A stretch of 64,000 nt of DNA, taken from an uncultured Gemmatimonadota bacterium (lineage in GTDB: Bacteria > JAAXHH01). Below, in pieces: positions 5,763 to 53,340 of the stretch. Numbering within the stretch: position 1 is the stretch's first letter; the number at the start of each line of letters is the position of its first letter. Where the stretch lies: contig OX638340.1 in the NCBI GenBank assembly GCA_951812955.1, positions 1,312,001 to 1,376,000 on the forward strand, given 5' to 3'. A program made the translations under genes and the position numbers. The notes under the pieces were generated by a model, which ran no database searches, was not told where the DNA came from, and saw only the letters and a program-made list of their open reading frames with translations.

Positions 5763-5798
5763 CCAGATCTCCAAACGGTCCATCTGAAGATCGCAGCA

Positions 5799-25872: not shown

Positions 25873-26748
25873 TCATTCTCCCCAGCGGTCGGGGTTTATC
25901 CCAGGCGCTTCGCTCTTCATCCCCTTCGGCTTGTGCGGTTGCTGCCATTCCAGGCCCGTGGTGTTCAGGCTCTGCAGGAAGGGTCTGGCCTGCGCCGGCG
26001 CGGAGGCCACGTCCCGGGGGTCCCACTCCTCCATGGGCTGTACGGGTCCCGACCAGGCCGGCCGGTAACCGAACTGGATTAGCTCCCGGGGTACCGTATC
26101 GCGGTTGGGATGGGTACCGTGGAAAACGTCCTTGGGAATCACCAGGGCCGATCCGGCTTTCGCGCACAGGGTCACCTCCTGGGGATGGGACTTGTAGCGT
26201 ACGTAGGGGTTGCCATGGGCGTGGAAGGACAGGTGCGATCGCGGTAAGACACGGAACGGCGCCCTTTCCGGCGGCAGATCGTCCAGATAGTACAGCACGC
26301 GCACCAGCCGCGGTGAACTGCCCTCGTAACTGAAAATGGAGGAGCCGTACGGCTGGCCGTCCGTATGCATGGAAATGGGCGGCGACCCCGAGAGGGTCCG
26401 CGTGAAGAGGCCTCGCGTAAACACGATGTCGGGGCCCATCAGCGCCTCGAGAAACTCGACCATGGGCGGATGGCCGATCAATGCGCACGTGGCCGGACTT
26501 TGCCACTGGGCTTCGAGACAATAGGTCTGGCAGTCGCTGTAGTCCTTGCACTCCATGGGCACATCGGACAGTTCGGCTTTAAGATTAGCGATGTGATCGG
26601 CGTCGAGCATTTCAGGGAGCAGCACATAGCCCTCGACTTCCAGGTGATGGATGCGCTGGGCGGTGGTCAAGGACCCGAAATCCGTCTCGTCGACGTGCAT
26701 GAACCCGATCTCTTCACTCGGATCGATTTTAACCGTGGCGCTTTCCAT
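25873..26748 (-). CDS. phytanoyl-CoA dioxygenase (PhyH) family oxygenase
   Basis: …HTDGQ… and …VFHGTHPN… motifs. The start is taken at MESATVK. Confidence 0.7.
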   Translation of the reverse strand: MESATVKIDPSEEIGFMHVDETDFGSLTTAQRIHHLEVEGYVLLPEMLDADHIANLKAELSDVPMECKDYSDCQTYCLEAQWQSPATCALIGHPPMVEFLEALMGPDIVFTRGLFTRTLSGSPPISMHTDGQPYGSSIFSYEGSSPRLVRVLYYLDDLPPERAPFRVLPRSHLSFHAHGNPYVRYKSHPQEVTLCAKAGSALVIPKDVFHGTHPNRDTVPRELIQFGYRPAWSGPVQPMEEWDPRDVASAPAQARPFLQSLNTTGLEWQQPHKPKGMKSEAPGINPDRWGE

Positions 26749-26909
26749 GATGTGCTCCTTGACAGACGGCCATTGCTTATCCCGGTGTCTGAGAAAACTA
26801 AATGTAACACCAGGGTGTTTCAAGTGTTTTCCGCGTGTATTCCGCTAGTGGGGTTACGCCCCGCTCATGATTTGCCCGGATGCCGATTCGGCGCGCGAAC
26901 GTCCCTGAT

Positions 26910-31005: not shown

Positions 31006-32205
31006 CTAGGTGGTGACTCGCATGGCAGATACACGCTGAAGCATCAACAGGCACGCTATGCCCGCCGCGGCCAGCACACCGTTGAAACTGAATACCAGAA
31101 TCCAGGCCGACTGCACGTCGGAATGGTCGAGTATCGATCCTGCCAGAACAGGCGCGCCGGTTCCCACCACAAATCCGATGAAGGACTGCAGAGCCTGAGC
31201 AGAACCAACCAGGTTTCTCGGAGCGAGTTCCGTGACAGTCGTCGAGTAGATGGCGGAATCGGCGGCCGTAAAGAATCCGTAAAGAAAACCCAGGGCGACG
31301 AGGTATGTAAACGGCAATCCAACCAGCCAACCGGCCAGGAATGAACATGTGCCGCTGACTGCGAATATCCACAACGCCGACCTGATTCTACCGATCCTGT
31401 CCGAAGTCCATCCACCCAATAGCACGGCGAAGATACCAGTCATGAACATCAAACCAGCCAGGGTAGCGGCCCTCGATGCCGCGTTGTCCGGTTCGAGACC
31501 TCCCATCATGAGCGCTGCGCCGAGCAGCAGGGGAAGCCACAGTCGGGCCACGAAGAGTTCGGCCGTGTGCAGCGCGTAGGCCATGATCACCAGGATCATC
31601 CGACGGTCACGCAATGGCGCCAGGGACAGCCATCCGGCTATTCCGCGGCTATCCTTCTCCTGCGGCGTCCGTTCACCCCGCCCTGAAGCCAGAAACGCAG
31701 CTATAAAAATGCTTGCCAGACCGGGCAAAGTGGTCATCAGAAAAGCTGGCTCCCACCCTTCCAATCGATCCAGGAGCGTGCCCATGAACACGTATGAGAC
31801 CGTCGTACCTGCATAACCCGATCCCACGAAAATACTTACGGCCGTGGCCCTTCCCCTTCGGGCGAACCTGTACGACGCGAGACGTATACCGGTGATGTAA
31901 ACACATACATGACCGACCCCGTAGATGAATCGCAGCAAGCAGGCGGTCCACAACCCCTCCGCCAGAATGGGAAACAGGAACCCGCTGCACGCCGTCAACA
32001 CGACGCCGATGATCAGGATCCGATACGGATTGAACCGGTCGGTGAAGGGTACGAGCAGCAGGGACGAAACGGCATAACCAGCTAGGTACGAAGAGAAGAT
32101 CATTCCCGCCTGGGTATTGTTCAGTTCCCACTGCGCTCGAATAAAAGGAAGAGACGCGACGTAACTCGAGGAGGACAGCAGGATGAGAAACAGCACCCCG
32201 CTCAA
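31006..32205 (-). CDS. MFS transporter
   Basis: 12-TM-like hydrophobic pattern and MFS motifs. 399 aa. Confidence 0.75.
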   Translation of the reverse strand: MSGVLFLILLSSSSYVASLPFIRAQWELNNTQAGMIFSSYLAGYAVSSLLLVPFTDRFNPYRILIIGVVLTACSGFLFPILAEGLWTACLLRFIYGVGHVCVYITGIRLASYRFARRGRATAVSIFVGSGYAGTTVSYVFMGTLLDRLEGWEPAFLMTTLPGLASIFIAAFLASGRGERTPQEKDSRGIAGWLSLAPLRDRRMILVIMAYALHTAELFVARLWLPLLLGAALMMGGLEPDNAASRAATLAGLMFMTGIFAVLLGGWTSDRIGRIRSALWIFAVSGTCSFLAGWLVGLPFTYLVALGFLYGFFTAADSAIYSTTVTELAPRNLVGSAQALQSFIGFVVGTGAPVLAGSILDHSDVQSAWILVFSFNGVLAAAGIACLLMLQRVSAMRVTT

Positions 32206-32431
32206 CCCGGCGAGCCAGGCTATGCCCGGCCAGGAGGATGTGCCGGATTGATTTCGGTGGGTGGCTTGATCAGTTATCTCGGATGACCTCGTTGAGTCAA
32301 ATGAAACGTAGTTTGAAACGCGGTTGAATGAACGGTATTGAATGAACTATGCACTTGCAAATCTTGTTCGTCTAACTATCATCCCAATAGGAATTCGCTC
32401 AAGCAACCCTTAATACTGGGAGTAGTGCAAG

Positions 32432-33244
32432 TTGACCAAACTATTATGCTGGAACATTAATCGCGGGTCTGAAGAAAGTGATAGCTGGCGGGAAATAGCG
32501 AACTCGGATGCGGACATTGCACTGTTACAGGAGGCCAGAAGACCTCCTGAAGATCTATCGAATCGTTTGCAGGTGGATCCTGAAGCATTCACTCATGGTA
32601 CTTCTAGATGTGCAATCGTAAGCCTCTCCAGCAAGGTGAGCGTTCGTTTTTTAAAACCCATGCTTCTGAATGATATCGATCAAGAAGGCGACTTTACAAC
32701 CACACATCAAGGGTGCATTTCAGCCGCTATCGTCAGTCCGAATAAGGGAGAGTCGTTTACTGCAGTTTCAATTTGTGCCGAATACGAGCAGCCTCGATGT
32801 TCATCATGGAATGTAACTGACGCCTCGGTCCACCGCGTCATCTCCGACCTGTCCCTGTTCATTGGCAAACAGCGGGGACACCGTATCATCGCAGCGGGTG
32901 ATCTCACCATCAATCGAGGCTATGGTGAAGATAAAAGCGGCTACTGGAAAGGAAGGTATGACTCGGTATTCAATCGTATGGACGCCATCGGCATGTGTTT
33001 CGTCGGTCCGCAAAACCCCCATGGCTGTTCGGCCGATCCTCGACCGCAGAACATGCCCCAAGACAGCAAAAACGTGCCTACCTACTGCAAGTCGTTTAGA
33101 AAAAACCCAGCGGCAGCATACGATCAACTGGACTACGTCTTCGTGTCGGAAAGCATGGCCGATTCCGTCAAGGTGTGCGCCTTGAACCACCCTGAAGAAT
33201 GGGGGCCAAGCGATCACTGCAGGATTAAAATTATGGTAGAGTAG
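32432..33244 (+). CDS. endonuclease/exonuclease/phosphatase (EEP) family protein, copy 2 (paralog of 5007-5762)
   Basis: The same …LCWNI…DIALLQE… and …EEWGPSDHCRI… motifs. Roughly 40% identical to copy 1 by eye. TTG start. Low-GC segment. Confidence 0.7.
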   Translation: MTKLLCWNINRGSEESDSWREIANSDADIALLQEARRPPEDLSNRLQVDPEAFTHGTSRCAIVSLSSKVSVRFLKPMLLNDIDQEGDFTTTHQGCISAAIVSPNKGESFTAVSICAEYEQPRCSSWNVTDASVHRVISDLSLFIGKQRGHRIIAAGDLTINRGYGEDKSGYWKGRYDSVFNRMDAIGMCFVGPQNPHGCSADPRPQNMPQDSKNVPTYCKSFRKNPAAAYDQLDYVFVSESMADSVKVCALNHPEEWGPSDHCRIKIMVE

Positions 33245-33253
33245 AGGAAAAAC

Positions 33254-33820
33254 ATGGCTACACAAAGGAACTCGGACACAACCTACCTGGCCCTCCTGCG
33301 CGGAGTAAATGTGGGCGGAAAGAACGTGATCAAGATGGCGGATCTCAGGAACTGCTTCGAGGCCGAAGGCTTCCGCGACGTCGTCACCTATATCCAAAGC
33401 GGGAATGTGATCTTTCGTTCGCCTTCAACAGGGCTCAGCGTCCTGACAAACCGGATCGAGGAGATGCTGGCCGCGGCGTTTGACTATGAAGCGAGTGTCG
33501 TGTTACGCTCACGAAAGCAGATGCGGGCAGTGGTTTCCGAGGCGCCGGCGGAATTTGGAGAACGGCCGGAGACGTACCGCTACGACACCCTCTTCCTGAA
33601 GGCTCCCCTAACGGCAACTGCCGCCATGGAGTGCATCCCCGCCAGGCCCGGTGTGGATGAATCCTGGGCAGGAAATGGTGTGCTCTACTACTCGAGACGC
33701 ATCGACCAGGCCTCGCGTAGTTATCTCAGCCGTCTCGCGTCGATGCCCGTCTACCAGCGCATGACGGTCCGCAACTGGAACACGACGACCAGGTTGTTAG
33801 AGCTCATGGAAAGAGACTGA
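33254..33820 (+). CDS. DUF1697 family protein
   Basis: N-terminal …YLALLRGVNVGGKNVIKMADLR…GFRDVVTYIQSGNVIF… is the DUF1697 signature. 10 nt downstream of EEP copy 2. Confidence 0.7.
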   Translation: MATQRNSDTTYLALLRGVNVGGKNVIKMADLRNCFEAEGFRDVVTYIQSGNVIFRSPSTGLSVLTNRIEEMLAAAFDYEASVVLRSRKQMRAVVSEAPAEFGERPETYRYDTLFLKAPLTATAAMECIPARPGVDESWAGNGVLYYSRRIDQASRSYLSRLASMPVYQRMTVRNWNTTTRLLELMERD

Positions 33821-33924: not shown

Positions 33925-34395
33925 TCACTCGGCGATGCACCGTCCATCCTTAAACGCCAAAACCGGTGGTGCGGGAATTGAGCAGTCGGAAACGTACCCA
34001 TACAGCTCATTCATCTCAGCTTCAAAGGCGTCATACGCTGTCAGCCGAATAGCTAGTGCCGTCGAATCGGTGGACGAGACGGAGTAAACGATGTACGCCC
34101 AGGGACCGCCGCAGGGCTTGGAGCCCAGGCCCGCGTAGCGACAGTCTGCAATCGACACGCCCTCAGCTTCGCCGACGAGCGTGTCGATTTCCCGTCGCAT
34201 CTCCATTAGCTGCGCACGGTCGCCTTCCTCGGACCGTTGGTCGCCTTCCTCGGTTCGCTGTTCGCCTTCCTCGGTCTGCTGTTCGCCTTCCTCGGTCTGC
34301 TGTTCGCCATTATTGTCATCGCCAACGACAGGATCCCGGCCGTCACAACCAAGGAGTAAAACGGAGATCCATACCGCCATAACCAGGTATCGCAT
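33925..34395 (-). CDS. hypothetical lipoprotein with acidic EEGEQ(Q/R)T tandem repeats
   Basis: Lipobox …LLLGCDG. Four 21-bp tandem repeat units (34220-34303) encode an E/Q-rich tract. Cys-containing C-terminal domain. Confidence 0.5.
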   Translation of the reverse strand: MRYLVMAVWISVLLLGCDGRDPVVGDDNNGEQQTEEGEQQTEEGEQRTEEGDQRSEEGDRAQLMEMRREIDTLVGEAEGVSIADCRYAGLGSKPCGGPWAYIVYSVSSTDSTALAIRLTAYDAFEAEMNELYGYVSDCSIPAPPVLAFKDGRCIAE

Positions 34396-34600
34396 GGTCT
34401 TTCCTTTCTGTCAGAAAAGAGTCATAGTCCCCGCTATGGAGGACGCCTGGCCTCGCTAACGGTTCCACGAGCTTGACCTCTAATTGTTCGACCTTATTCT
34501 TGCCCAACGCCCTCAGTTCTTCTTCGACGGAGAGCAAATGTAGGTTGGCGAACACTTGTTGAACATCCCTACATTTCATCTCCGTTAAAAGTCCTTCGCC

Positions 34601-34650
34601 CCAAACCCTTGACACCACCATCCGATACTCCTTACTTCCCGTTGTAAGCC
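34601..34650 (+). promoter_or_regulatory. conserved upstream element with perfect TTGACA (-35-like), shared with the second MNT copy at 39796-39845
   Basis: About 45 nt, CCTTGACACCnCCATCCnATnCTCCTTACTTCCCGTTGTAAG, conserved at about 90% between the two MNT loci, whereas the coding regions are only about 80% identical. Confidence 0.4.
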
Positions 34651-34686
34651 CGGTTTTTGGTCGTGCCCCCAGGGATACTGGTAGCT

Positions 34687-34971
34687 ATGCACTCGATCAT
34701 CAAACAACACCGCACCGAGATCCTCGCCCTCGCCGAACTCCACGGCGTCGCCAATGTGCGCGTGTTCGGATCCATGGCAAGGGAAGATGCTGATGACTCG
34801 AGCGACGTCGATCTACTGGTGTCGCTGCCTTCTGGTAAAACAGGCCTCGCACTTGGCGCCCTGTTGATGGACGTGCAAGACCTTCTGCAACGGCGTGTGG
34901 AAGTCGTGACCGTGAAGAGTCTTCATCCTGCTCTCCGGGATAACGTGCTGAACGAGGCGCAGTCGCTATGA
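34687..34971 (+). CDS. mntA: MNT-type nucleotidyltransferase antitoxin (type VII TA)
   Basis: …VRVFGSMAREDADDSSDVDLLVSL… minimal nucleotidyltransferase motif (GS…D.D). Confidence 0.75.
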   Translation: MHSIIKQHRTEILALAELHGVANVRVFGSMAREDADDSSDVDLLVSLPSGKTGLALGALLMDVQDLLQRRVEVVTVKSLHPALRDNVLNEAQSL

Positions 34972-35312
34972 AATCCGACGCGCGGTCCGATAGAGTGTTG
35001 CTGGAACACATCCGAGAGTGTATTGACCGTATTAGTGAATACACCGGCTGTAAGCGCTCATCGTTCTACGCCTCGCGTCTGGTTCAGGACGCAGTGGTAC
35101 GTAATCTGCAATTGCTTGCGGAGTCAACGCAACGCCTGAGTAACGCTGTTAAAGAAACCGAGACGGATATACCCTGGCGTGCCATTGCAGGATTTCGAAA
35201 CGTGCTCGTACACGGTTATCTTGAGATTGACCTCGATGCAGTTTGGAGCGTGGTTGAACAGGACCTCCCGAAGTTATCCAGGGCAATCGATCGCATGGTC
35301 CGATCCGTATGA
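34968..35312 (+). CDS. hepT: HepT-like (DUF86) RNase toxin
   Basis: Rx4HxY motif (…FRNVLVHGY…). Overlaps the mntA stop by 4 nt. Confidence 0.75.
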   Translation: MKSDARSDRVLLEHIRECIDRISEYTGCKRSSFYASRLVQDAVVRNLQLLAESTQRLSNAVKETETDIPWRAIAGFRNVLVHGYLEIDLDAVWSVVEQDLPKLSRAIDRMVRSV

Positions 35313-35340
35313 TCTCTGGGATATCCCGCGCGAGTCCACC

Positions 35341-36474
35341 TCATCCCTGCCTGTCCAGCCTGCCCGTCCCCATTATCCGTTCCATGTTCCCACCCAGTAT
35401 CGCCGCCATCTCGTCCTCGTCGAGGAACGGGCAGTAGCGCCTCACATAGTCGAGGCTCTGGCGGTAGGTCCAGTGCAGCAGCACGATAGGGATGTCCGTC
35501 CCCCACAGAATACGGTCGGCGCCGAAGCATTCGACCATCTTTTCAAGGACCGGCCGCACCTGGGGCATGGGATAGTCCCAGTGCGACTGCAGGAACACGG
35601 CAAAGAGGATCTGGATGTGGAAACGGGGGTGCTCGGACGGCACGGCTTCGTATACTTCATCGGGAATGTCAAACCGGTCGCGGCCGGCGAACAACCGCCA
35701 GGGGAAGCCGTGGGTCATGATCACCTCGACCTTGGGGTAATGGTCCATCCAGGCCCGCAACGAACGTAACTCTTCTATGTAGGCGGAAGGCGATCCGACC
35801 GCGCCGAGAGTGAAGAACACCGGTATGTCCAGCTCGGCCACCGCTGCCCAGAACGGGTCGAAATCCGGCCCGGTCCATTCGGGCGACAGGCCGTAGAGCG
35901 GCCGATGGAAAGGAGCGAACTGAAGGCCAGAAAGACCGTGAACGCGGATCGCCCGTTCGAGTTTCGCAATGGCGTCGTCGGTCCTCTCCGGCATCCACCA
36001 TTCGGGGACCTGGGCCAGTCCCTGGATCCGCTCCGGATAACGCCTGCAGCATGCCGCGATGTAGCCGTCATCGAGTCCCATGTACGGCGTGCGATGCAGA
36101 AGCGCCCGGTCGATGCCCGCGTAGTCCATTTCCGCCACCAGATTCTCCGCGGAGAAGGAGAAATCCTCCGTCCATGGCGGCAGGGCCTGCTTGACAAATT
36201 CCTCGCCATCTACCGTCCACTCGGCCAGGCCGTGTTTGCCGGTGCGGAAGTTCGCGTCACGCAGGCCATCGAAGCGCCACGGAAGGTCGGGGTCGTAGAG
36301 ACCCGTGGCGTCGGCCGGAGCGCGGTCCTTACGCCGCCAGACGGGTTGCTGGCGTGCCTGGGCCATAAACATCTGCAGATGACGCCGGAATTCGGCATGG
36401 TCGTCGAAGCCGCCGATATCGCGCGGGGCGGGAAAGCAATAGGCGTGTCCGTCGTAGATCATGATATCGTCCAT
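35341..36474 (-). CDS. amidohydrolase-2 family metal-dependent hydrolase
   Basis: N-terminal …IYDGHAY… and …ILWGTDIP… motifs. 377 aa. Confidence 0.65.
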   Translation of the reverse strand: MDDIMIYDGHAYCFPAPRDIGGFDDHAEFRRHLQMFMAQARQQPVWRRKDRAPADATGLYDPDLPWRFDGLRDANFRTGKHGLAEWTVDGEEFVKQALPPWTEDFSFSAENLVAEMDYAGIDRALLHRTPYMGLDDGYIAACCRRYPERIQGLAQVPEWWMPERTDDAIAKLERAIRVHGLSGLQFAPFHRPLYGLSPEWTGPDFDPFWAAVAELDIPVFFTLGAVGSPSAYIEELRSLRAWMDHYPKVEVIMTHGFPWRLFAGRDRFDIPDEVYEAVPSEHPRFHIQILFAVFLQSHWDYPMPQVRPVLEKMVECFGADRILWGTDIPIVLLHWTYRQSLDYVRRYCPFLDEDEMAAILGGNMERIMGTGRLDRQG

Positions 36475-36569
36475 CTAAACGCGTTGACAGGATCATGCTT
36501 GCAGAGGTATTTTTCAGCAATTAACCATACCCGTCTTCACGCGATCTTCTTCGATCCTTAAGAATCGCA

Positions 36570-38087
36570 TTGACCGTCGGAGTGGTCTCAGTGAAAAGTA
36601 CCGAAATCCGTCCAATCTGGAATCCCCGTACCGGCATTGAAGGTCTTGACGGAGATCCCAATGAACTGAGTTCTTCCGAGATCCCCGGAATAAAAGCGAG
36701 CTGGACCGAGCAGCAGGAGCGGTTGAAGGACAAGGCCCAACTTTCTGACTTCACCGAGAAGTTGAGCCGGGAATGGGCAATAGAAACCGGTATTCTTGAG
36801 AATCTATACGAAATCGACCGTGGCGTCACGCAGACTCTCATCGAGCGGGGTTTTCAATCCGAAATTCTCAGCTACGGAACGACAAATAAGCCCCGAGAAT
36901 ACGTGATCCAACTCTTGCGAGATCAGAAGGAAGCCCTGGACGGCGTATTCGCGTTCGTCAAGAACGACCGGTCCCTCACTACGTCTTACATAAAAGAACT
37001 ACACGCGGCATTACTGCGCAACCAGCACACGACCGAGGCGCTCGACAGTCTGGGTAGAACAGTTGAAGTCCCGCTCCTCAAGGGAGACTGGAAAACCCAG
37101 CCCAACTACCCCGTCCGGGATGGCGTGACGTACAGCTACTGCCCGCCGGAACAGGTTAGTTCTGAGATGGACCGGTTGCTCGAGATGCATGAGGCGCAGG
37201 TCGAAAGCGGCGTGTCTGCCGAGGTACAGGCCGCTTGGCTGCATCATCGTTTCACCCAGATCCATCCCTTTCAAGATGGAAACGGACGCGTGGTCCGTGC
37301 GATCGCTTCACTGGTGCTCGTAAAGGAAGGACTTTTCCCGCTTGTGATAAGGAGGGACGACAGGGGCAGATACCTGGAAGCCCTCGAAGCCGCCGACCTC
37401 GGCGACCTGAACCCGCTTGTCATGCTGTTCACTGGACTGCAAAGAGATCAGTTCCTGAAGGCGACCAAGATATCTGAAGAACTACGTTTGGAAGAGGACG
37501 TGCAGGTAGTCTTGGACGGGCTGGACAGGGAAGCCCGCAGAATCGCAACGGAGAGGCTCAAGGCACACAGGGAGGTATTCGGTTTGGCCAGCGCTATCGA
37601 AAATGATCTAGAAGAACGTTTGAATACGATAGCAAAAGAAGTTTCGGGAGCACTAAATCAGGTAGCGTCCGGCGCAACTACATTCGTGCGAAGATCCGAC
37701 GAGAAAACGGATTATTTCTACAGGGCGCAGATCGTCAAGATTGCAAATGAACACATTGATTATTACGCCAATACGTCCGAATACCGATCATGGGTTTCAT
37801 TAAACATGCGATGGTCGCGTCGAGGGCAGTTGGTATTCGCGCTACACGGAATCGGCAAACCATTCAACGGTGGCCTTATCTGCGCGCCATTTCTGGAATT
37901 CAGAGATTACGACGATACCGACGAGGAGCACGGCGAGCGTCAATCAAATTCAACCCTCATTCCGGTCGCCGAGGAAGGTTTCGTTTTCTTCTACAACGAG
38001 GACAAGGATCGACTTCTCGGAAGGTTCAGGCCCTGGCGGGAAAACGTCCTCAAGATTGTCATAAAAGAACTCGCGCAAAACCTCTGA
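36570..38087 (+). CDS. Fic family protein (AMPylation/adenylyltransferase fold)
   Basis: Canonical Fic motif HPFQDGNGRVVR at the centre of a 505-aa protein. TTG start at 36570; an alternative GTG is at 36591. Lower GC than the contig average. Confidence 0.8.
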   Translation: MTVGVVSVKSTEIRPIWNPRTGIEGLDGDPNELSSSEIPGIKASWTEQQERLKDKAQLSDFTEKLSREWAIETGILENLYEIDRGVTQTLIERGFQSEILSYGTTNKPREYVIQLLRDQKEALDGVFAFVKNDRSLTTSYIKELHAALLRNQHTTEALDSLGRTVEVPLLKGDWKTQPNYPVRDGVTYSYCPPEQVSSEMDRLLEMHEAQVESGVSAEVQAAWLHHRFTQIHPFQDGNGRVVRAIASLVLVKEGLFPLVIRRDDRGRYLEALEAADLGDLNPLVMLFTGLQRDQFLKATKISEELRLEEDVQVVLDGLDREARRIATERLKAHREVFGLASAIENDLEERLNTIAKEVSGALNQVASGATTFVRRSDEKTDYFYRAQIVKIANEHIDYYANTSEYRSWVSLNMRWSRRGQLVFALHGIGKPFNGGLICAPFLEFRDYDDTDEEHGERQSNSTLIPVAEEGFVFFYNEDKDRLLGRFRPWRENVLKIVIKELAQNL

Positions 38088-38140
38088 ATCAACGATTGCC
38101 GGACCACCCAGATGTGCGATGAGGTTACGAATCCACTCCG

Positions 38141-38947
38141 ATGCATTCTCTCAGCACATGTACAGTTGACCATCCCACGGACGCCGAACGTTTTCTTTTC
38201 GATACCAACGGCTACCTGGTGTTGGAGGATTTCCTCCAGGAATCCCTTGTCGATTCGCTCAATTCCGCGCTGGAGCGGACGATAGCGCGCCGGCGCGACC
38301 CCGAATTCAAACGGACGCACGAACCGGCCTTCGCCGACAGGCTCGGTAAAGCCAATGCGCGGGTCATGCACCTGCTGGCCGAAGATCCGCTCTTTCTGGA
38401 CATGCTCGACTACGAACCGATGATGGCCTACGTGCACGGTCTGTTCAACGAGATGCCCCATCTGCATTCGACTGATGCCTTCTATGAAATCGAGCAGGAG
38501 GAATACCACGGGCAGGGCTGGCATACGGACGGAATCCAGGCCGGATTCCGCAACTTCCGGCCGCACATACCGTTGTTACAGTTCAAGGTGGGGTATTACC
38601 TGAGCGACATGTCCGAACCCAACCAGGGCAACCTGAACCTCGTTCCCGGTAGCCATAAGTCCGTGGTCGAGCCAGACACGGAGGACGGCATGCCCGGCGC
38701 CGTTCAGATCTGCGGGCGTCCCGGCACGGCCGTGCTATTCCACAACGGGGTATGGCATTCGGCCGGACCGTTCACACGTCGCGGCGGCAAACGGGTAATC
38801 CTGTACTATGGGTACGAACACCCGTGGATGCTGGCTTGTGCGGAACAGTGGCGGTACGACAGGGACTTCCTGAACAACCTCACCCCGGCGCAGCGACGCT
38901 TTTTCCACGGTTTCGTCTTCGACCCGCCCGAGTATCGCTGGGGATGA
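38141..38947 (+). CDS. phytanoyl-CoA dioxygenase (PhyH) family oxygenase
   Basis: …GWHTDG… and …LVPGSHK…FHNGVWHSAGP… motifs. Confidence 0.7.
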   Translation: MHSLSTCTVDHPTDAERFLFDTNGYLVLEDFLQESLVDSLNSALERTIARRRDPEFKRTHEPAFADRLGKANARVMHLLAEDPLFLDMLDYEPMMAYVHGLFNEMPHLHSTDAFYEIEQEEYHGQGWHTDGIQAGFRNFRPHIPLLQFKVGYYLSDMSEPNQGNLNLVPGSHKSVVEPDTEDGMPGAVQICGRPGTAVLFHNGVWHSAGPFTRRGGKRVILYYGYEHPWMLACAEQWRYDRDFLNNLTPAQRRFFHGFVFDPPEYRWG

Positions 38948-39088
38948 CCGGATGGGTCGGACGGACGGGATGACCGGACGATTCGAAACGAATTGCTATA
39001 AAAGTCCTGCTGGTGCCTACAGACGAAAGCCGAGTCCCGGGCAACCTGACTATCCGATTTCGTTGGCGTCCAGCGGGGATGAGCGTAA

Positions 39089-39478
39089 TCAGGCAGCCTT
39101 GCGATTCGGCAGTTTGCGCCTCATCATCACGCCTGGAAGCCGCTTCAGTCTTTCGTTGCGAGGATCGATCTCGAATCCGCCGGACTCCAGGGCCGTAACG
39201 CCAAGCAGCGGTTCCGTCCCTTCCGGGCCATACGCAATGGTCCCGCCAACGACCACGCCCTCGAATTCGATCTCGGCGACTGTTGCTTCCAGCGTGAGCT
39301 GTTTCCCGTCCGCGAGTACGTAGTCGCGACTCCCCCTCGGTTTGAGTCCAATCGCTTCGAGACGCTGCCTCGGTACGAGCGAGTCGAACGCGGCGGTATC
39401 GACAACGAACTTGCCGGTCCAGCTACGCCGTGGATCGGCGGGATTTCGGATCGTCACGTCGACATAAGTAGTCCCCAT
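39089..39478 (-). CDS. retropepsin-like (clan AA) aspartyl protease domain protein
   Basis: …KFVVDTAAFDSLVP…VVVGGTIAYGPEGTEPLLGVTALE… resembles the bacterial retropepsin-like aspartyl protease family (DTG-type motif variant DTA). GGAGGG RBS before ATG 39478. Confidence 0.5.
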   Translation of the reverse strand: MGTTYVDVTIRNPADPRRSWTGKFVVDTAAFDSLVPRQRLEAIGLKPRGSRDYVLADGKQLTLEATVAEIEFEGVVVGGTIAYGPEGTEPLLGVTALESGGFEIDPRNERLKRLPGVMMRRKLPNRKAA

Positions 39479-39961
39479 ACTGAAATCCCTCCGGTGGGTA
39501 TCTCTTTCGATTGCACAAGTCAGATCTGATAATCCGTTGATCACCTTGTTAATATAGTCGTAATTCATTTGGTATTCTATTCGGTAATTTCGCTGAAGCG
39601 CACAGCGATCGGTTCGCCGATGGATTACATTATGTCGGAGGATTGTTCACCCGATTCGTCTGGAACGCTTTGGGTGGGCCGCGAAACCGCTTCACCCGGA
39701 ATGCTTCGAATGGGTCTCGGCTCCGCCGGACTGCACGGATGACGGAGTTTTGCAGAACATTTGGTCCTTCATTCCGTCGCCGTTACCGTACCCATCCCAA
39801 ATCCTTGACACCGCCATCCCATTCTCCTTACTTCCCGTTGTAAGTCCTGCCGCTGTGGTCCGGTCGGATCTGTGGCGTTGGAAGGTGGGACCAATTACGT
39901 AAGTCTTTCCTTTTGTTGAACGCACGGCATCGATCAGGTCGTACCGAAGGATAAGGTAGCT

Positions 39962-40246
39962 ATGCACGCTATAATCGAACAGAACCGCGCGGAAATCCTC
40001 GCCCTTGCCGAACGCCATGGCGTCGCCGACGTGCGCGTATTCGGGTCCATGGCGAGGGGCGACGCCGACGACGCCGGCGATGTCGACCTACTGGTGTCAC
40101 TGTCGCCTGGCAAAACAGGTCTTGCACTCGGAGCGCTGTTGATGGACGTGCAGGACCTCCTGCAACGACGTGTTGAAGTCTTAACGGAGAAAAGCCTTCA
40201 TCCTGCCCTCCGTGAAAACGTGTTGCGCGAGGCGCAGCCGTTATGA
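39962..40246 (+). CDS. mntA: MNT-type nucleotidyltransferase antitoxin, second copy
   Basis: About 80% identical to 34687-34971 by eye. …VRVFGSMARGDADDAGDVDLLVSL…. Confidence 0.75.
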   Translation: MHAIIEQNRAEILALAERHGVADVRVFGSMARGDADDAGDVDLLVSLSPGKTGLALGALLMDVQDLLQRRVEVLTEKSLHPALRENVLREAQPL

Positions 40247-40335
40247 AGTCAGACGCCTGGTCCGTAGAGTATCGCCCGAACACAACATTCCCGAATTAGC
40301 CAGGGCGATCGAGCGTATAGTTCATTCCACCTGAT
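40243..40335 (+). pseudogene. HepT toxin remnant (internal deletion)
   Basis: Starts MKSDA as in hepT at 34968, but terminates after 18 codons. The HepT C-terminus (…LARAIERIVHST*) is present about 40 nt later in another frame. About 90 codons are missing. Confidence 0.6.
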
Positions 40336-40390
40336 CCTTGAGAAGACCTCGCGGCCACGTGTCCTGCTGGCCGAGTGAAGGGTAATCATC

Positions 40391-40588
40391 ATGAATGTCA
40401 GTAAAGAAGAAAACACCAGACTCACTCCTTCGACAGTCAAACTCAAGCGGTTAATAGGGACCTCGCCTGCTCCTCGAATGTTGACGCCATACGAAATCAA
40501 GTTGCTGCGGCAAGCCGCGAAGGAAGTGGCCGAAGTTACGGAAGAAGTCCTCGCTGAGAAAGACAGTAGTAAGGAAGAAGGATGCTGA
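40391..40588 (+). CDS. small hypothetical protein (65 aa) translationally coupled to cas3
   Basis: GAAGGG RBS. The stop overlaps the cas3 ATG (ATGCTGA). Sequence …LTPYEIKLLRQAAKEVAEVTEEVLAEKD… is helical and charged. No recognisable family. Confidence 0.45.
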   Translation: MNVSKEENTRLTPSTVKLKRLIGTSPAPRMLTPYEIKLLRQAAKEVAEVTEEVLAEKDSSKEEGC

Positions 40589-43045
40589 CCTTCGAGCGGT
40601 TTTTCTCCACAGCGTTCGGTAAAGACGTTTGTCCTTTCGCCTATCAACAGGCTCTCGCAAAGCAGGCCTGGCCAGACGCGCTCATTGCTCCGACCGGCCT
40701 TGGCAAGACCGCCGCGGTGGTGCTTGGTTGGGCCTGGAAACACGCCGTAGTCGAATCTCCAACTCCACGTCGCCTCGTTTATTGCCTGCCTATGCGCACG
40801 CTCGTCGAGCAAACCGAGCGGAATGTCAGAGAATGGCTGCGTGAACTGGGCAAAGCAAATACGGACTGGAAATCACGCCTTCCGGACCCTGAAGCCGGAG
40901 TCCATGTCCTCATGGGCGGCATGGATGAGCCGCGCTGGTTTGAAACACCTGAACGACCGGCCATCCTGATCGGAACTCAAGATATGCTGATCAGCCGCGC
41001 CCTGATGCGGGGGTACGCCATGAGCCGCTTCCGCTGGCCAGTGGACTTCGCCTTGTTGCACAACGACGCGCAGTGGGTTTTTGACGAAGTGCAATTGATG
41101 GGAGCAGGCCTGGCGACCTCTACACAACTCGAAGGTTTTCGTCGTACGTTCGGAACGGAGATCCCTTCGTGCAGTCTCTGGGTGTCAGCGACCCTTCACC
41201 CGGACTGGCTACATACGGTTGATTTCCAGCAACGTCCTACGGTGTGGCGTGTTCCATGTGATTTCCCCGACGATATACATTCATCGCAAGTCCTCAAACT
41301 GATTAACGCGTGTAAGCCAATTCAGCCGTCGTCCGTCGCGCCGATGAGTGCCAAGAAGGCCGATCTGAACGCATACGCGACAGCGTTGGCGAAGGAAACC
41401 CGGAGTCTGCACCAAGAAAACAATACGACGCTTGTGGTACTCAATACAGTCGCCCGCGCCCAAGCCGTGCATAAAGCACTTCAGAAGATGGATGTTGCGC
41501 CTGCTTGCCTTGCTCTCATCCACTCGCGGTTTCGGCCTAAAGATCGCACCCGGCAGATGGACAAGTTGCCGCAAACCGGGGAAACAAAAAAACTGATCGT
41601 AGTCGCGACGCAGGCGATTGAAGCAGGTATCGATCTATCAGCGGCGGTCCTGCTCACCGAACTCGCGCCTCCTTCGTCCCTTACCCAGCGGTTCGGTCGG
41701 GTAAATCGCTACGGTGAGTTGAACGATTCCGGTGGCGGGACGGTCCGCTGGATAGATATCATCGGAGGCGACCTCGGTGATTCGTTGGCGGCTCCGTATG
41801 AGATTAACGAACTCAAAATCGGGCGCGAGCGGATTGCCGCGTTAAAGGACGCTCGGCCCTCTAATCTCGTGCCGCCCGCATCAGACGACTGCGCCTATCG
41901 GGGTGTGATACGATCCAGGGATATGCTGGACCTATACGACACCGATCCGGATTTGACCGGCTTTGATGTCGATATCGCTCCTTACGTCCGCGATGCTGAA
42001 GATACCGATATTCGAGTTTTCTGGCGCGATTTCGACGTGCAGTCTGGACCAGAGGACCAGACTGCACCCATGCGGGACGAGCTTTGTGCGGTTCCGATTG
42101 GGCGCGCGCGTAACTGGCTTAGGGATGTCAGAAAGAAGGAAGGGCAGCGGGTATTTCGCATAGACCCGCAGGCACGAGCTAATGGGAAGGGTAGCGTTCC
42201 GACTTGGACCGCGTTCCGAGAGGAACCGTGGCCGGGTTTGGTGTTGATGGTTCATGCGAGTGCTGGGGGTTATGCACCGGACACGGGGTTTGATCAGGGT
42301 CTAAAAACAGCAGTCGAGCCTGTGAAGCTAGGAGAGGAACAGCAGACGGCAGACGAGTCGAACGACGGCGATTCCGACAGCGAGCAGAGCAGGTGCGTGG
42401 AACTGACGGATCATCTGGACCACGTGGCTTTTGAAGCCAGATACCTATGCGATGGCCTCGACGTTTGTGAAGCTTGGAAAGCCACAATCCTCCAGGCAGC
42501 GTACTGGCACGACCTCGGTAAAGCACACCCTGAGTTTCAGGCGCGAATGGTTGCAAGTAACACGGAGGCCGACCCACCACCAGAAGGGTTGCTAGCCAAG
42601 GCTCCGAAGTACGACCGCACGAAAGGACGTGCATATTTCCGGCACGAACTTGCGTCTGCACTAGCATTTCTCACACAAGCAGGCTGGGTACGCAAGGCCG
42701 ATCTTGTTGCGTACCTGATAGCCGCCCATCACGGCAAGGTACGCCTGAACTTGCGTCCCCTACCAGCCGAAAGTCGGGTAATGGGGGAGGATGGACGGCG
42801 TTTTGCTCGCGGCGTGTGGGAGGGAGACGAGATACCGTTGGTTAGTTTGGGCAATGGGGAAACATGGACAGGGGGGCCACTCGCACTATCCGTGATGGAG
42901 TTAGGCGAGCATCCGGAAACTGGGGCAAGTTGGACCGAGCGTACGCGAAATTTGCTTTCCCAGTACGGTCCTTTTCAGCTCGCTTGGTTGGAGGCACTTG
43001 TACGTATCGCCGACTGGCGGGCATCAGCAAAAGAAGAACGAGGTC

Positions 43046-43062
<17 letters not shown>
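40582..43062 (+). CDS. cas3: Cas3 helicase with C-terminal HD nuclease domain (type I-G architecture)
   Basis: Helicase motif I APTGLGKT and motif II VFDEVQ. C-terminal HD motifs (…AYWHDLGKAHPEFQ…, …IAAHHGKVR…). Confidence 0.85.
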
Positions 43063-46598
<3,536 letters not shown>

Positions 46599-46605
46599 GT
46601 CTCGA

Positions 46606-48240
46606 ATGTTTGCACTTACTTTCACCTTTCCTTTGGGCCGCTATCACGCAACGCCGTGGGGGCGCCATGTCAACGAAGCCGATGTCGCTTGGCCGCCAGA
46701 GCCTTGGCGCATTCTTCGTGCGCTCGTCGCTACCTACTGGCGCAAAGGCGACCGGGTACGCTGGTCCGAGGACACACTCGCCCGTCTAGTAGACGCGCTA
46801 GCCCAGGATGCGCCGATCTATCACTTGCCCCCAGGCGTGATCCACGCACATACCCGGCATTACATGCCCACACCTAAAATGACGCTCGTCTTCGACGCCT
46901 TTGCCCACTTGTCTAAAGACGAACAGATCGTAGCGGCTTGGCCAGAACTCGAATTGGACGTCGAACTATTTGATTTGGCGGCTGATCTCGCAGAGGGGCT
47001 CGGCTACCTGGGGCGTGCCGAGAGTTGGGTTGAATGCGGAACGATAACCGACTGGAACCAAGATGTGGCAAACTGCCATCCTGTGGGCCAAAATGGGACC
47101 GCCCACGGGGAGATAGTGCGAGTGCTCACACCGCTCAGTGCTCAGGATTATATGGTGGAGCGTACGCGCCTGTTGGAGGAAGTTGACGATGCAGAGCGAG
47201 ACCGCACCGCTGCTTCCGGCAAGAGACCTCCTACCCCCAGAGCCCTTGAAAGGGCACGCAACAAAGCGTTCGGGCCGACCCTTCCTGATCGTCTGGTCGA
47301 AGCCTTGATGCTCGATACGGCCGATTACCAAAAATACCGTTGGAACCGACCGCCAGCCTCACGTGAGATTGTTTATACACGTCCGCCTCTGTCCCCTGTT
47401 CCTCGCCGTGCCCGGATTCGTGCAACAGTTGATGACCGCAGACAATTCACCGTAGCGCGCTTTCTTTTGGCCGGCCGTCCCCGACCTCGTATTGAGGATG
47501 CGGTCAAGATCGGTGAACTCATGCGGCTTGCCGCGCTTTCCAAGTTTGGTTGGGAGGACAAGAGACCCAGAGCACCGTCGGTGATATCAGGCCGGGGTTC
47601 TGATGGCCGACCATTACGCAACGGCCAGCATTCGCATGCGTTTTGGTTGCCCGAGGACGCCGATGGCGATGGCTGGATTGACCATATAACGGTTTACGCA
47701 GAGGAAGGTTTCGATGTTTCAGTGCGCGAGAAGCTGGATCGACTGACCCGTTTGTGGGTCGGTGGAGACGATTCCGGTGGAGAGGAAGGAGATAAAGAGA
47801 CCGGTCGCCAAGAGTGGCGACTGGCCTTGGAGGGCTTTGGCCGCCCGGAGGACTTTGCGGACACATCAAGGCTATTTAGCTGTTCAGATGAATGGGAAAG
47901 TGTAACACCTTTTTTGGCGTCTGGTCACTTAAAAAAGGCCGGGTATGAAGGCGAGATACATCGGCTTTGGAAGCGCAGACGAGTCACATCTGGTTCGCAT
48001 ACTGAGCCTGTACAGGTCGAAATCTTGCGCCACATCGAGATTCACGGTACTCTCCGTAGAGCAGTGCATTTTCATCGATTCCGTTCACGGGGACGAGAGA
48101 AGCAACCCGACGCGCAAGGGGCCTTGCTGCGCCTGAGTTTTAACGAGCCAGTTACAGGACCCTTAGCTCTTGGATATGCCTGCCATTTTGGTCTTGGAAT
48201 GTTCGCACGCCCAATCCTAGACGCAAAATCGGAACAATGA
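46606..48240 (+). CDS. csb2: Csb2 (Cas5-Cas6 fusion-type subunit, type I-G)
   Basis: N-terminal …LGRYHATPWGRHVNEADVAWPPEPWRILRALV… matches the conserved Csb2/GSU0054 motif. 544 aa. Confidence 0.7.
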   Translation: MFALTFTFPLGRYHATPWGRHVNEADVAWPPEPWRILRALVATYWRKGDRVRWSEDTLARLVDALAQDAPIYHLPPGVIHAHTRHYMPTPKMTLVFDAFAHLSKDEQIVAAWPELELDVELFDLAADLAEGLGYLGRAESWVECGTITDWNQDVANCHPVGQNGTAHGEIVRVLTPLSAQDYMVERTRLLEEVDDAERDRTAASGKRPPTPRALERARNKAFGPTLPDRLVEALMLDTADYQKYRWNRPPASREIVYTRPPLSPVPRRARIRATVDDRRQFTVARFLLAGRPRPRIEDAVKIGELMRLAALSKFGWEDKRPRAPSVISGRGSDGRPLRNGQHSHAFWLPEDADGDGWIDHITVYAEEGFDVSVREKLDRLTRLWVGGDDSGGEEGDKETGRQEWRLALEGFGRPEDFADTSRLFSCSDEWESVTPFLASGHLKKAGYEGEIHRLWKRRRVTSGSHTEPVQVEILRHIEIHGTLRRAVHFHRFRSRGREKQPDAQGALLRLSFNEPVTGPLALGYACHFGLGMFARPILDAKSEQ

Positions 48241-48444
48241 AACGCAGCATTTACAATGACACCTCAGTCATTGGAGTTTGTTATAGAGTTGTTTCAAGGA
48301 AGCTATAACTGTCGATCGATTCTTACATAATCTCGATGTTGTTCATACAGCCTTAAGTCGAGACGTATCCCTGGACCCACGACAGCTAAAACGTACGAAC
48401 ATTTTGCAGAACGAGTAGCCGCGAATACTTCAGCGACTCACCAC

Positions 48445-50157
48445 ATGAACCACATCCACCAACTCACGCTACCAATACCTCCGCCCCCAGTCGACGCGAA
48501 TACGCCATTGGTCCCAGCGCGCATGGTCAACGAATGGGTCTATTGCCCGCGACTGGCCTACCTGGAATGGGTTGAAGGAGAGTGGGCGGAGACGGGAGAC
48601 ACCGCCGAGGGACGGCGTACACACGTAAGGGTCGACGAAGGTGGCGGCCGTCTGCCCGGACCGGAAGAACTGGATGATGAGATGGCCCGCGCCCGGTCCG
48701 TCACGCTTTCGTCGGATCGTCTCGGCGTAATCGCCAAGATAGACGTCGTGGAAGCCGAAGAAGGAATCGTCACGCCCGTGGATTTCAAGAAAGGCAAGCG
48801 TCCCCATGTCGCCACTGGCGCCTACGAGCCCGAACGCGTCCAGATCTGCACGCAGGCCATGATCCTGGAGGACAATGGTTACAGAGTGGAGCGCGGTATG
48901 CTCTGGTACGCCGGGTCGCGTGAGCGCGTCCCGGTGATGCTTGACGATGAACTTCGATCCCTGACCCTGGCGGCAATCAGAGAATTGCGCGTCGCCGCGG
49001 CTGATGGCCGTCGGCCACCGCCTCTGGAAAACAGCCCGAAGTGCCCCCGCTGTGCCCTGGCGGGGATCTGTCTGCCCGACGAAACCAACCTGTTCCGCAA
49101 AGGGACTGCACCACGCCCGCTGAACCCATCGGATGATCCGGCCCTGCCGCTCTACGTACAGGAACCGGGGGCGCGACTGCGAAAGAGCGGTGAGCGCTTG
49201 GTGGTGGAAATCAAGGAAGAATCCGTAGAGGTACCCATAATCGACGTTTCCCAGGTCGCTCTGTTCGGCCCCGTCTCGGTGACCACACCGGCTCTGCACG
49301 CGCTGATGAACGCGGAGATTCCGGTATCGTGGTTTTCCACGGGAGGCTGGTTCCTCGGCCATACAGTAGGAACAGGGCATGGAAACGTGGCCGTTCGCGA
49401 AGCGCAATACCGCGTAGCCTTCGATAAAGGCGCTCGCCTTGCCTTCGCGCGCGATCTCGTGGCGGCTAAGGCGCGTAACGCCCGTACGATGTTGCGTCGC
49501 AACTGGCGCGTCAATATGGACGCGGAAATCAGGGATGAAGCCCTAGTCCGGCTCAGGGGAGTCGTGCGCCGCATCTCCCGCGCCACGGACGAAAGCCAAC
49601 TGCTGGGCCTGGAAGGCGAGGCCGCCGCAGTGTATTTCAACTGCTTCGAGCACATGCTTGCTAAGGATCTGGACGGCGGCGCGACGGGGTTCTCCTTCAC
49701 CAAGCGCAATCGGCGGCCTCCCACGGATCCGGTGAACGCGCTCCTGTCGCTGGCCTACGCTTTGTTGACGCGGGTATTCACTACGACCATCTCGGCGACG
49801 GGGCTCGACCCCTACATGGGCCTCTACCACCATACGCGCCACGGGCGCCCGGCGCTGTCCCTCGATCTAATGGAACCGTTCAGACCTATTGTCGCCGACT
49901 CCTGCGTTATTCAAGCCATCAACAACGGCGAAGTAAAGCTGGCCGATTTCGTGTTCAACGGGGCTGCTTGTTCGCTGAAGCCTGCTGGTCGCAAGTCCTT
50001 CATCGCCGCGTTCGAGCGGCGCATGGAGCAGGAGACCACACATCCGCTTTTCGGCTATCGCGTTTCCATGCGGCGACTTATCGAGGTACAGTCCCGATTG
50101 CTCGCCCGGCATTTTCAGGGAGAGATCGTCTCTTACCCTCATTATCTTCCCCGGTAG
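48445..50157 (+). CDS. cas4-cas1: Cas4-Cas1 fusion protein
   Basis: N-terminal Cas4 domain with a Cys cluster (CPRLAYLEW … CPRCALAGICLPDE). C-terminal Cas1 region. 570 aa. Confidence 0.8.
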   Translation: MNHIHQLTLPIPPPPVDANTPLVPARMVNEWVYCPRLAYLEWVEGEWAETGDTAEGRRTHVRVDEGGGRLPGPEELDDEMARARSVTLSSDRLGVIAKIDVVEAEEGIVTPVDFKKGKRPHVATGAYEPERVQICTQAMILEDNGYRVERGMLWYAGSRERVPVMLDDELRSLTLAAIRELRVAAADGRRPPPLENSPKCPRCALAGICLPDETNLFRKGTAPRPLNPSDDPALPLYVQEPGARLRKSGERLVVEIKEESVEVPIIDVSQVALFGPVSVTTPALHALMNAEIPVSWFSTGGWFLGHTVGTGHGNVAVREAQYRVAFDKGARLAFARDLVAAKARNARTMLRRNWRVNMDAEIRDEALVRLRGVVRRISRATDESQLLGLEGEAAAVYFNCFEHMLAKDLDGGATGFSFTKRNRRPPTDPVNALLSLAYALLTRVFTTTISATGLDPYMGLYHHTRHGRPALSLDLMEPFRPIVADSCVIQAINNGEVKLADFVFNGAACSLKPAGRKSFIAAFERRMEQETTHPLFGYRVSMRRLIEVQSRLLARHFQGEIVSYPHYLPR

Positions 50158-50162
50158 CGACT

Positions 50163-53218: not shown

Positions 53219-53340
53219 TCGGATCCTAACTACGACCTGTTCATTATCAATTGCGTTTCCGGGCTGCGCGGCGAGGATCGTGGGCCCTGATCCAGGGCTT
53301 TTAGACGTTTCGTTTCCAGACAGACTGATTTCAACGTATA

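Follow-up and report, generated by a model that had tools for sequence, protein, structure and literature searches.

We analysed a stretch of 64,000 nucleotides (nt) from an uncultured Gemmatimonadota bacterium (assembly GCA_951812955.1, contig OX638340.1, positions 1,312,001 to 1,376,000 of the forward strand), hereafter called the window. The segment of interest (33925–40588) lies directly upstream of a type I-G CRISPR-Cas locus. A preliminary description, made from the sequence alone, had regarded it as a defence or mobile island of about 6.6 kb and lower GC content. A comparison with related genomes leads us to a different reading, which we consider probable: the segment belongs to a vertically inherited chromosomal neighbourhood whose intergenic gaps repeatedly capture small selfish or defence cassettes. 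Three such gaps are filled in the window: one by a gene of the endonuclease/exonuclease/phosphatase (EEP) family, one by a self-contained MNT/HepT toxin-antitoxin cassette, and one by a 13.6-kb block. This block starts with a second MNT/HepT cassette, in which HepT is internally deleted, and continues as a complete type I-G CRISPR-Cas system.

Conserved gene order of the locus

The loci of relatives (L001–L007) were found via a homology search with the Fic protein of the window. Look-ups by exact sequence, with the Fic, amidohydrolase and protease proteins and with a lipoprotein (P0241) 100% identical to that of the window, gave no match. L003 is the same record as L002, and the comparison therefore comprises six related species-level genomes (L001, L002, L004, L005, L006 and L007), which are labelled as Gemmatimonadota or Latescibacterota metagenome-assembled genomes (MAGs). 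Several of the MAG isolate names suggest a sponge origin for the lineage. The closest relative is L001, with about 92–95% DNA identity to the window. Gene order was compared by tblastn of the window proteins against the relatives' loci, insertions and deletions by blastn of the window against L001, and proteins were assigned by profile searches with Pfam, NCBIfam (using the curated cutoffs), PADLOC and PHROGs. The genes named in the preliminary description are all real and located where it had placed them, as judged by these searches and the open reading frame (ORF) listing; three start codons were revised.

The backbone that the relatives have in common consists of genes for a DUF1697 protein, a lipoprotein, an amidohydrolase, a Fic protein, a PhyH protein and a retropepsin-like protease, in this order (L001 and L004–L007; partly L002). 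The full order in L001, L004, L005, L006 and L007 is oxidoreductase, hydrolase, MFS transporter, (EEP), DUF1697, lipoprotein, amidohydrolase, Fic, PhyH, protease, LRR/Big2 protein, M23 peptidase and SBP5, and L002 keeps the core of it. The outer flanks are thus kept too, with the MFS transporter on the left and the LRR/Big2 protein, the M23 peptidase and SBP5 on the right. Not every relative has the complete backbone, as L006 lacks the protease and L002 the lipoprotein, which is syntenic in the other five. In four relatives (L001, L004, L005 and L006) the backbone is found without CRISPR-Cas and without MNT/HepT. Because the order is kept in six relatives, four of which have no CRISPR-Cas, we regard the backbone as inherited and not as cargo that arrived with the cas operon. 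The proposal that the 6.6 kb travelled together with the cas operon is not supported by this pattern, as the backbone is kept with or without cas and only two cassettes within the range vary. For most of the backbone the same gene order does occur outside a defence context, but it does so in relatives within one lineage and not in distant genomes.

Three backbone genes are present in all six relatives and have a host-like GC content at third codon positions (GC3): the DUF1697 gene (33254–33820, + strand; Pfam E=1.7e-38; 81–85% identity; GC3 0.725), the Amidohydro_2 metabolic gene (35341–36474, - strand; E=1.1e-25; 84–94% identity; GC3 0.786) and the gene of a PhyH-family dioxygenase (38141–38947, + strand; E=1.1e-16; 85–96% identity; GC3 0.747), of which a paralogue is located at 25873–26823. 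The amidohydrolase and PhyH genes are resident metabolic genes unrelated to defence. In this respect the preliminary description was correct; they are not, however, the passengers that it suspected, since it is they that belong to the resident backbone, and the role of passengers falls to the toxin-antitoxin and cas modules.

We consider it very improbable that the whole 6.6 kb form one defence or mobile island which was gained with CRISPR-Cas, or extends it, and in which Fic, protease and lipoprotein are abortive-infection genes. The contiguity with the cas operon and a low-GC tract that spans about 32–49 kb speak for such an island, as do PADLOC matches to Fic (SoFic and PDC-S04) and MNT (PDC-S09) and the linkage of the Fic family to restriction-modification operons and mobile elements elsewhere. 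It is, however, largely refuted by synteny: the order is the same in the four relatives that have neither cas nor MNT/HepT. The host-like GC3 of the DUF1697, amidohydrolase and PhyH genes, the divergence of Fic in step with its neighbours, and the properties of the protease and the lipoprotein discussed below also argue against it.

Additional segments compared with the closest relative

Compared with L001, the window has exactly three extra pieces, all with clean borders in the blastn alignment. The first (32193–33264, 1.07 kb) carries the EEP gene, has no counterpart in L001 and lies outside the range of the preliminary description. The second (34449–35365, 0.9 kb) carries the MNT1/HepT1 cassette and is found opposite about 40 nt of L001 (8732–8775). 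The third (39662–53289, 13.6 kb) contains MNT2, the HepT remnant, a short reading frame termed orf65, the cas operon and the CRISPR array, and is found opposite 236 nt in L001; the block itself, absent from L001, comprises positions 39663–53289 on the + strand.

The same gaps are used differently in the relatives. The slot of the MNT1/HepT1 cassette holds a 385-residue GFO/MocA-type metabolic oxidoreductase in L004, L005 and L006. Other small genes in these gaps of the relatives are a RelE/Gp49-like gene paired with a helix-turn-helix (HTH) gene, HicB-like and DUF2283 genes, a D12 methyltransferase, an AAA-ATPase/PDDEXK_9 protein and a glyoxalase. Around Fic, where the window has empty gaps, small HicB-like or DUF2283 genes are located in L002 (8335–9997), L005 (9606–9824), L007 (9485–9730) and L004 (11494–11694). 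L002 additionally has a D12 methyltransferase and a 79-residue gene directly 5' of Fic.

No hallmarks of mobility accompany the inserts: there is no integrase or recombinase among the profiled ORFs, there are no flanking repeats, and the nearest tRNA gene is ~9 kb away from the block. At the borders of the MNT1/HepT1 cassette neither target-site duplications nor inverted repeats were seen. The locus shares with the concept of a defence island or integration hotspot the clustering of defence and selfish modules, their variability between close relatives and their atypical composition. It differs from this concept by having no integrase, tRNA or flanking repeats and by the location of its modules in separate gaps of a conserved metabolic neighbourhood instead of one contiguous insert. 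The region does contain real defence and selfish modules, namely a HepT/MNT pair, an orphan MNT and an adjoining type I-G CRISPR-Cas system, but it is not a single mobile unit.

The EEP gene (32432–33244, + strand; Pfam Exo_endo_phos E=1.4e-7) has the lowest GC content in the area (GC3 0.535, z=-4.4) and among the relatives occupies this slot only in L004 and L005, where it is located 3' of the RelE/Gp49-like and HTH pair. A paralogue with 41% identity and a GC3 of 0.537 is located at 5007–5783 (- strand). Neither copy was matched in the PADLOC search. The two may represent an uncharacterised mobile nuclease or phosphatase family.

Base composition

As a reference for GC3 we used 29 flanking genes outside the low-GC tract (mean 0.753, standard deviation 0.050). 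The tract begins at about 32.2 kb and ends at about 49 kb, with cas3, cas8, cas7 and csb2 inside it; it is thus wider than the region originally described. Within it, GC3 is clearly low for the EEP gene, HepT1 (0.548), Fic (0.611) and the cas3, cas8, cas7 and csb2 genes (0.54–0.59), and moderately low for the lipoprotein (0.643), the protease (0.650), MNT1 (0.657) and MNT2 (0.663). This places Fic, HepT1, the lipoprotein and the protease 2–4 standard deviations and the cas effector genes 3–4 standard deviations under the host value, with MNT1 and MNT2 borderline at about -1.8 to -1.9. In addition to the three backbone genes mentioned above, cas4-cas1 (0.706) and cas2 (0.717) are host-like. The composition does deviate, and the lower GC content noted previously holds for several genes (HepT1, Fic, lipoprotein and protease), but not for the amidohydrolase and PhyH genes.

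In all relatives the Fic, lipoprotein and protease genes have a low GC3, while their neighbours range from 0.74 to 0.85. This would be expected if the block from lipoprotein to protease had entered an ancestor as an island, had become fixed and had lost its mobility genes, the toxin-antitoxin and cas modules being added later at the same spot. The occurrence of the Fic family on mobile elements in other phyla (63–68% identity), the distribution of the protease family over MAGs of several phylum labels (71–79% identity) and the fact that the locus keeps attracting toxin-antitoxin genes point in the same direction. The low-GC3 genes are interleaved, however, with host-like metabolic genes that fit their surroundings (a second PhyH, GFO/MocA oxidoreductases, hydrolases and transporters), and the block has no integrase, tRNA or repeat borders. 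As the lipoprotein is restricted to the lineage and separate arrivals would account equally well for the three atypical genes, we regard an old, decayed island as rather unlikely.

The MNT/HepT cassettes

The first cassette (34450–35364, + strand; about 0.9 kb) is present in the window and absent from L001. It contains the genes of a predicted MntA-type nucleotidyltransferase antitoxin, MNT1 (34687–34971, + strand; Pfam NTP_transf_2 E=9.5e-14), and of a predicted HEPN RNase toxin, HepT1 (34968–35312, + strand; Pfam HepT-like E=4.8e-28; NCBIfam HepT_toxin 72.1 bits, cutoff 60). MNT1 is located upstream of HepT1 in the same direction, with an overlap of 4 nt. Homologues place its start at the ATG at 34687 (94 residues) instead of 34657 in the ORF listing. 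The motif GSx10DxD is present in both MNT copies of the window (34768–34812 in MNT1). HepT1 has the motif RNVLVH (Rx4H, residues 77–82, 35196–35213), followed by G-Y.

MNT2 (39962–40246, + strand; Pfam NTP_transf_2 E=5.5e-13) is an intact orphan antitoxin gene. Its protein is 83% identical to MNT1, and the two MNT loci have 81% DNA identity over 300 nt. The identity to the MNT proteins of L002 and L007 is 96–98%, and the substitutions are found almost exclusively at third codon positions (5, 0 and 22 at positions one to three in one of the two comparisons; 3, 1 and 26 in the other). A scan of metagenomes with MNT2 yielded only four distant loci. Downstream of MNT2 remains a HepT2 remnant (40243–40340, + strand), in which a 5' piece of about 43 nt is fused to a 3' piece of about 57 nt and the frame stops after 18 codons. 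Relative to the intact pair of L002, about 245 internal nt are lost: window positions 39050–40284 align with 14558–15808 of L002 and positions 40278–40513 with 16054–16289. An alignment to HepT1 reveals the deletion as well, and the leader that follows is retained. The second MNT with a deleted HepT, as it had been described before, is therefore confirmed.

Directly 5' of cas3 the decay of the cassette has thus reached three different stages, as it is intact in L002, has lost most of HepT in the window and is fragmentary in L007. L007 (12336–13914) furthermore contains an intact second MNT/HepT pair. Adjacent to this pair, the last 133 nt of the protease gene are present as a duplicate, the complete protease gene comes next, and a degraded MNT cassette is located further on, before cas3. 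This arrangement suggests repeated insertion of the cassette at the locus. A 52-nt element upstream of MNT1 (34600–34651, + strand), which contains TTGACA, is 90% identical to positions 39796–39847 upstream of MNT2, and the MNT copies of L002 and L007 have it upstream as well. It is probably a promoter or operator of the cassette.

[quoted passage not shown] Both consist of two small overlapping genes, MNT first, with GSx10DxD in MNT and Rx4H followed by tyrosine in HepT (RNVLVHGY), and HepT1 scores over its cutoff. In contrast, the MNT proteins of the window score below the MntA equivalog cutoff, the second copy has lost the toxin and left an orphan antitoxin, and a conserved upstream element of ~100 nt, with the 52 nt described above, travels with the cassette. 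Extrapolating from the family, HepT1 would be an Rx4H HEPN RNase kept inactive through adenylylation by MNT1, and the orphan MNT2, given its similarity to MNT1, may also neutralise HepT1.

The type I-G CRISPR-Cas block

The cas operon (40582–50456, + strand) comprises cas3g, cas8g1/csx17, cas7g/csb1, csb2, cas4g-cas1g and cas2. In this order, the first five reach NCBIfam scores of 747.8 (cutoff 400), 610.6 (150), 118.2 (38), 172.1 (45) and 765.7 (560) bits; Cas2 was matched by Pfam (E=3.5e-18). The system is complete. It is followed by a CRISPR array (50666–53218, + strand) with 35 repeats of 36 nt, the last three of which are degenerate, and 34 spacers. Two spacers are each present as exact tandem duplicates (51215–51252 and 51289–51326; 51882–51921 and 51958–51997). 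Self-targeting spacers were not found, either against the remainder of the window or against the fetched loci.

The slot between the protease and the LRR protein holds type I-G cas genes in three genomes, the window, L007 and L002. The Cas proteins of L007 are 89–92% identical to those of the window, the backbone proteins 78–88%. The Cas3 of L002 has no more than 36% identity to that of the window, although MNT (96% of residues) and a 236-nt leader (86% of nucleotides) are conserved there. Since the Cas proteins of L007 are closer to the window than its backbone and Cas3 of L002 is so different at the same slot, the cas block appears to have been exchanged; the pattern is consistent with a recurrent site of exchange. 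From the alignment of L002 (15485–16547) with the window (39962–40588), a recombination breakpoint is implied close to position 40513 of the window, a short distance upstream of cas3. On the right, the insertion site is flanked by the gene of a secreted protein of 1383 residues (53341–57492, + strand) with Big_2 domains, long leucine-rich repeats (72-nt period) and an M66-like peptidase region, which is kept in the relatives.

Alternatively, CRISPR-Cas and the MNT/HepT cassettes might be ancestral and cleanly deleted in the cas-negative relatives. Three genomes that are related to different degrees have their cas genes in one and the same slot, which would fit such a loss, and so would the visible decay of the cassettes (HepT2 deleted in the window, fragments in L007), which implies that erosion is ongoing. 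But no CRISPR repeat, MNT or cas remnants were found in the cas-negative genomes, and the closest relative, L001, is devoid of the block. The low GC3 of the cas effector genes, the higher similarity between the cas genes of window and L007 than between their backbones, and the very different cas3 of L002 are likewise at odds with an ancestral block. We therefore consider loss unlikely and prefer the capture of the modules by a resident neighbourhood.

Between the HepT2 remnant and cas3g lies orf65 (40391–40588, + strand), a reading frame of 65 codons that overlaps the start of cas3g by 7 nt. The profile searches revealed no family match. The frame is open in L007 (54% amino acid identity), and its first 41 codons can be aligned in L002. 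Substitutions relative to L007 are evenly distributed over the codon positions (20, 16 and 24). Its coding status is doubtful, and it may be the cas leader instead of a gene. A role as a small regulator or anti-CRISPR-like gene was considered and rejected for now, given the missing family match and the even substitution pattern.

Type I-G (formerly I-U) is assigned on the basis of all signature genes scoring over the curated cutoffs and the array of 36-nt repeats. The gene order of the window starts with cas3, whereas the loci on Thermus and Streptomyces plasmids have the order cas7-csb2-cas3. Another difference is the MNT/HepT cassette that precedes the operon in the lineage of the window; because the Thermus and Streptomyces plasmid loci have no such pair, the association is specific to this lineage. 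On the Thermus thermophilus JL-18 plasmid (NC_017590.1, L113, 1–1072) a Swt1-family HEPN-domain gene, not an MNT/HepT pair, is located just upstream of the type I-U/I-G cas7-csb2-cas3 genes.

MNT/HepT could be a functional companion of the type I-G block, i.e. an addiction module made of proteins, by which the cas locus would be kept stable. CreTA modules, which are RNA-based guardians, serve as the model for this idea. Each of the three cas-positive genomes has the cassette directly upstream of cas3, none of the four cas-negative ones has it at the slot, and MNT and the 236-nt leader stay conserved in L002 despite the dissimilar cas3. On the other hand, HepT has decayed in two of the three cas-positive genomes, and the type I-G loci of Thermus and Streptomyces have no MNT/HepT pair. 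On balance, we find a guardian role of this kind highly doubtful.

The Fic protein

The Fic gene (36591–38087, + strand) encodes a predicted class II Fic AMP-transferase of 498 residues (Pfam Fic E=1e-18). Homologues place its start at the GTG at 36591, compared with 36570 in the ORF listing. The active site, for which the pattern HxFx(D/E)GNGRxxR was tested, is represented by the motif HPFQDGNGRVVR (residues 225–236, 37263–37298), which is invariant or nearly so in 36 homologues. In class II Fic proteins, by definition, an inhibitory motif (S/T)xxxE(G/N) precedes the Fic core within one polypeptide chain. Such a motif, TGILEN, is present at residues 66–71 (36786–36803), N-terminal to the Fic core, and its residues T66, G67, E70 and N71 are invariant in the alignment of the 36 homologues. 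By motif content, the protein is a class II, self-inhibited AMP-transferase.

The C-terminal domain, which is specific to the family, consists of a long helix and an α/β-sandwich in a predicted model (predicted local distance difference test score, pLDDT, of 93), for which no close solved fold was found. Its 215 residues match neither a Pfam family nor a sequence in the PDB. In a search of 1.84 billion representative proteins the domain occurred in no more than 260 clusters, and the majority of the full-length members have about 480–500 residues with the domain at the C-terminus.

Fic is syntenic in all six relatives, with a GC3 of 0.51–0.66 in every one of them. Its identity across the relatives is 78–99%, that of its neighbours 74–96%. 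As the rates of divergence match, the gene appears to have been inherited vertically within the lineage. Elsewhere, members with 63–68% identity are found in other phyla. In Mesorhizobium and Caldilinea (L013, 611–11113; L014, 2339–11094; L015) Fic is the last gene of an hsdR-hsdM-hsdS operon, transcribed in the same direction and followed by a large serine recombinase. In Rhodovulum (L010–L012) the family is located near hsdM/hsdS, IS66 and a HATPase_c_3 gene, and in L008 the neighbours of the Fic gene are ParA, a YhgA-like transposase and a shufflon protein. On a lambda-like prophage contig (L033, 57–9324), a 64% identical Fic is a moron after terminase, portal, S49 protease, capsid and DUF6441 genes; in a scan of viral collections with the Fic alignment it was the only full-length member, other matches being restricted to the Fic core. 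Judged by these gene contexts, the family is mobile-element cargo, often linked to restriction-modification, and an old, fixed acquisition in the lineage of the window. Fic would thus have been acquired long ago from a gene family that rides mobile elements elsewhere. No restriction-modification genes were seen among the larger ORFs of the window, not all of which were profiled, and no direct description of a Fic protein linked to restriction-modification was found in the literature searched.

The PADLOC models SoFic (E=1.7e-22) and PDC-S04 match the protein through the Fic core. An assignment as a SoFic orthologue was rejected, as the NCBIfam model ProtAdlyltaseSoFic yields only 31.8 bits (cutoff 550). 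The SoFic chains in the PDB match no more than residues 183–250, with E about 1e-3. With the single-gene anti-phage system SoFic (10.1101/2022.05.11.491447; PMC12249575) the protein has in common the AMP-transferase core and the canonical active-site motif; it also has an N-terminal inhibitory helix motif. It differs by its length (498 vs about 370 residues) and by a different C-terminal domain, which has no close solved relative. It also has no small downstream antitoxin gene and is fixed in the lineage instead of variable.

A further comparison concerns accessory toxins of type I restriction-modification systems. The anticodon nucleases PrrC and RloC are embedded as accessory toxins in type I restriction-modification operons. 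The position of the Fic family directly 3' of hsdR-hsdM-hsdS in Mesorhizobium and Caldilinea resembles this organisation, whereas Fic of the window has no restriction-modification genes nearby.

The protease and the lipoprotein

The retropepsin-like clan AA aspartic protease has 129 residues (39089–39478, - strand; TIGR03698 62.6 bits, cutoff 57.35). Homologues support M31 of the listed ORF (39089–39568) as the start. In the catalytic motif (39389–39400, - strand) the window has D-T-A-A, while glycine is present in all 20 aligned homologues (D-T/S/N-G-A). The window allele may be inactive, or D-T-A-A may be a sequencing or assembly error. The family comprises 1887 proteins, with 71–91% identity in an alignment of 21 sequences, and the homologues at 71–79% identity belong to the MAGs of several phylum labels mentioned above. 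In other genomes the close homologues stand alone, flanked by Amidohydro_2 and Amidohydro_3 metabolic genes. The protease was considered as a toxin-antitoxin-like or defence gene, and this was rejected in view of the metabolic surroundings of its homologues and their lack of a conserved partner.

The acidic-repeat lipoprotein (33925–34395, - strand) has the lipobox LLGC at residues 14–17 and 4.3 copies of a 21-nt repeat (seven residues, EEGEQQT-like). Searches of Pfam, NCBIfam, PADLOC and PHROGs gave no match. None of its 135 homologues has a name; their length (93–234 residues) varies with the repeat number, and those with a source label are all from Gemmatimonadota MAGs. By its distribution, the lipoprotein is a lineage-restricted backbone gene. 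The suggestion that protease and lipoprotein are candidates for defence functions is not borne out: PADLOC and PHROGs match neither of them, and the protease homologues and the lipoprotein have the contexts just described.

Implications

Several observations weigh against a resident neighbourhood that captures cassettes. The events may have run in the other direction, from an ancestral cas block and ancestral cassettes to their loss in four relatives, though no remnants were found. The persistently low GC3 of Fic, lipoprotein and protease means that part of the backbone is itself old foreign DNA. The two MNT copies reach only 40.2 and 34.6 bits with NCBIfam MntA_antitoxin, below the cutoff of 60. 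Finally, every comparison genome is metagenome-assembled, and their taxonomic labels conflict.

The systems present are all of known kinds, namely a type VII toxin-antitoxin system (PMC7641770), type I-G CRISPR-Cas and a class II Fic protein, and the pattern, a small insertion hotspot, is an ordinary bacterial one. An enrichment of features of this kind has been documented for sponge-associated microbes (PMC5099237, PMC8163846). The cas operon would provide the organism with adaptive immunity. For the annotation of the locus, resident genes can now be separated from inserted ones, the stable part being the genes between the defence modules. The locus also serves as a warning that adjacency and GC content alone are insufficient for calling a defence island.

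Two aspects may be of use beyond the annotation, neither of them surprising in kind. The family of ~490-residue class II Fic proteins with a conserved, unassigned C-terminal domain, which recurs in type I restriction-modification operons and other mobile elements of several phyla, is a reasonable candidate for a defence or addiction effector. The locus itself offers a small natural series, in which one toxin-antitoxin cassette is found intact, toxin-deleted and fragmentary beside exchangeable type I-G cas operons.

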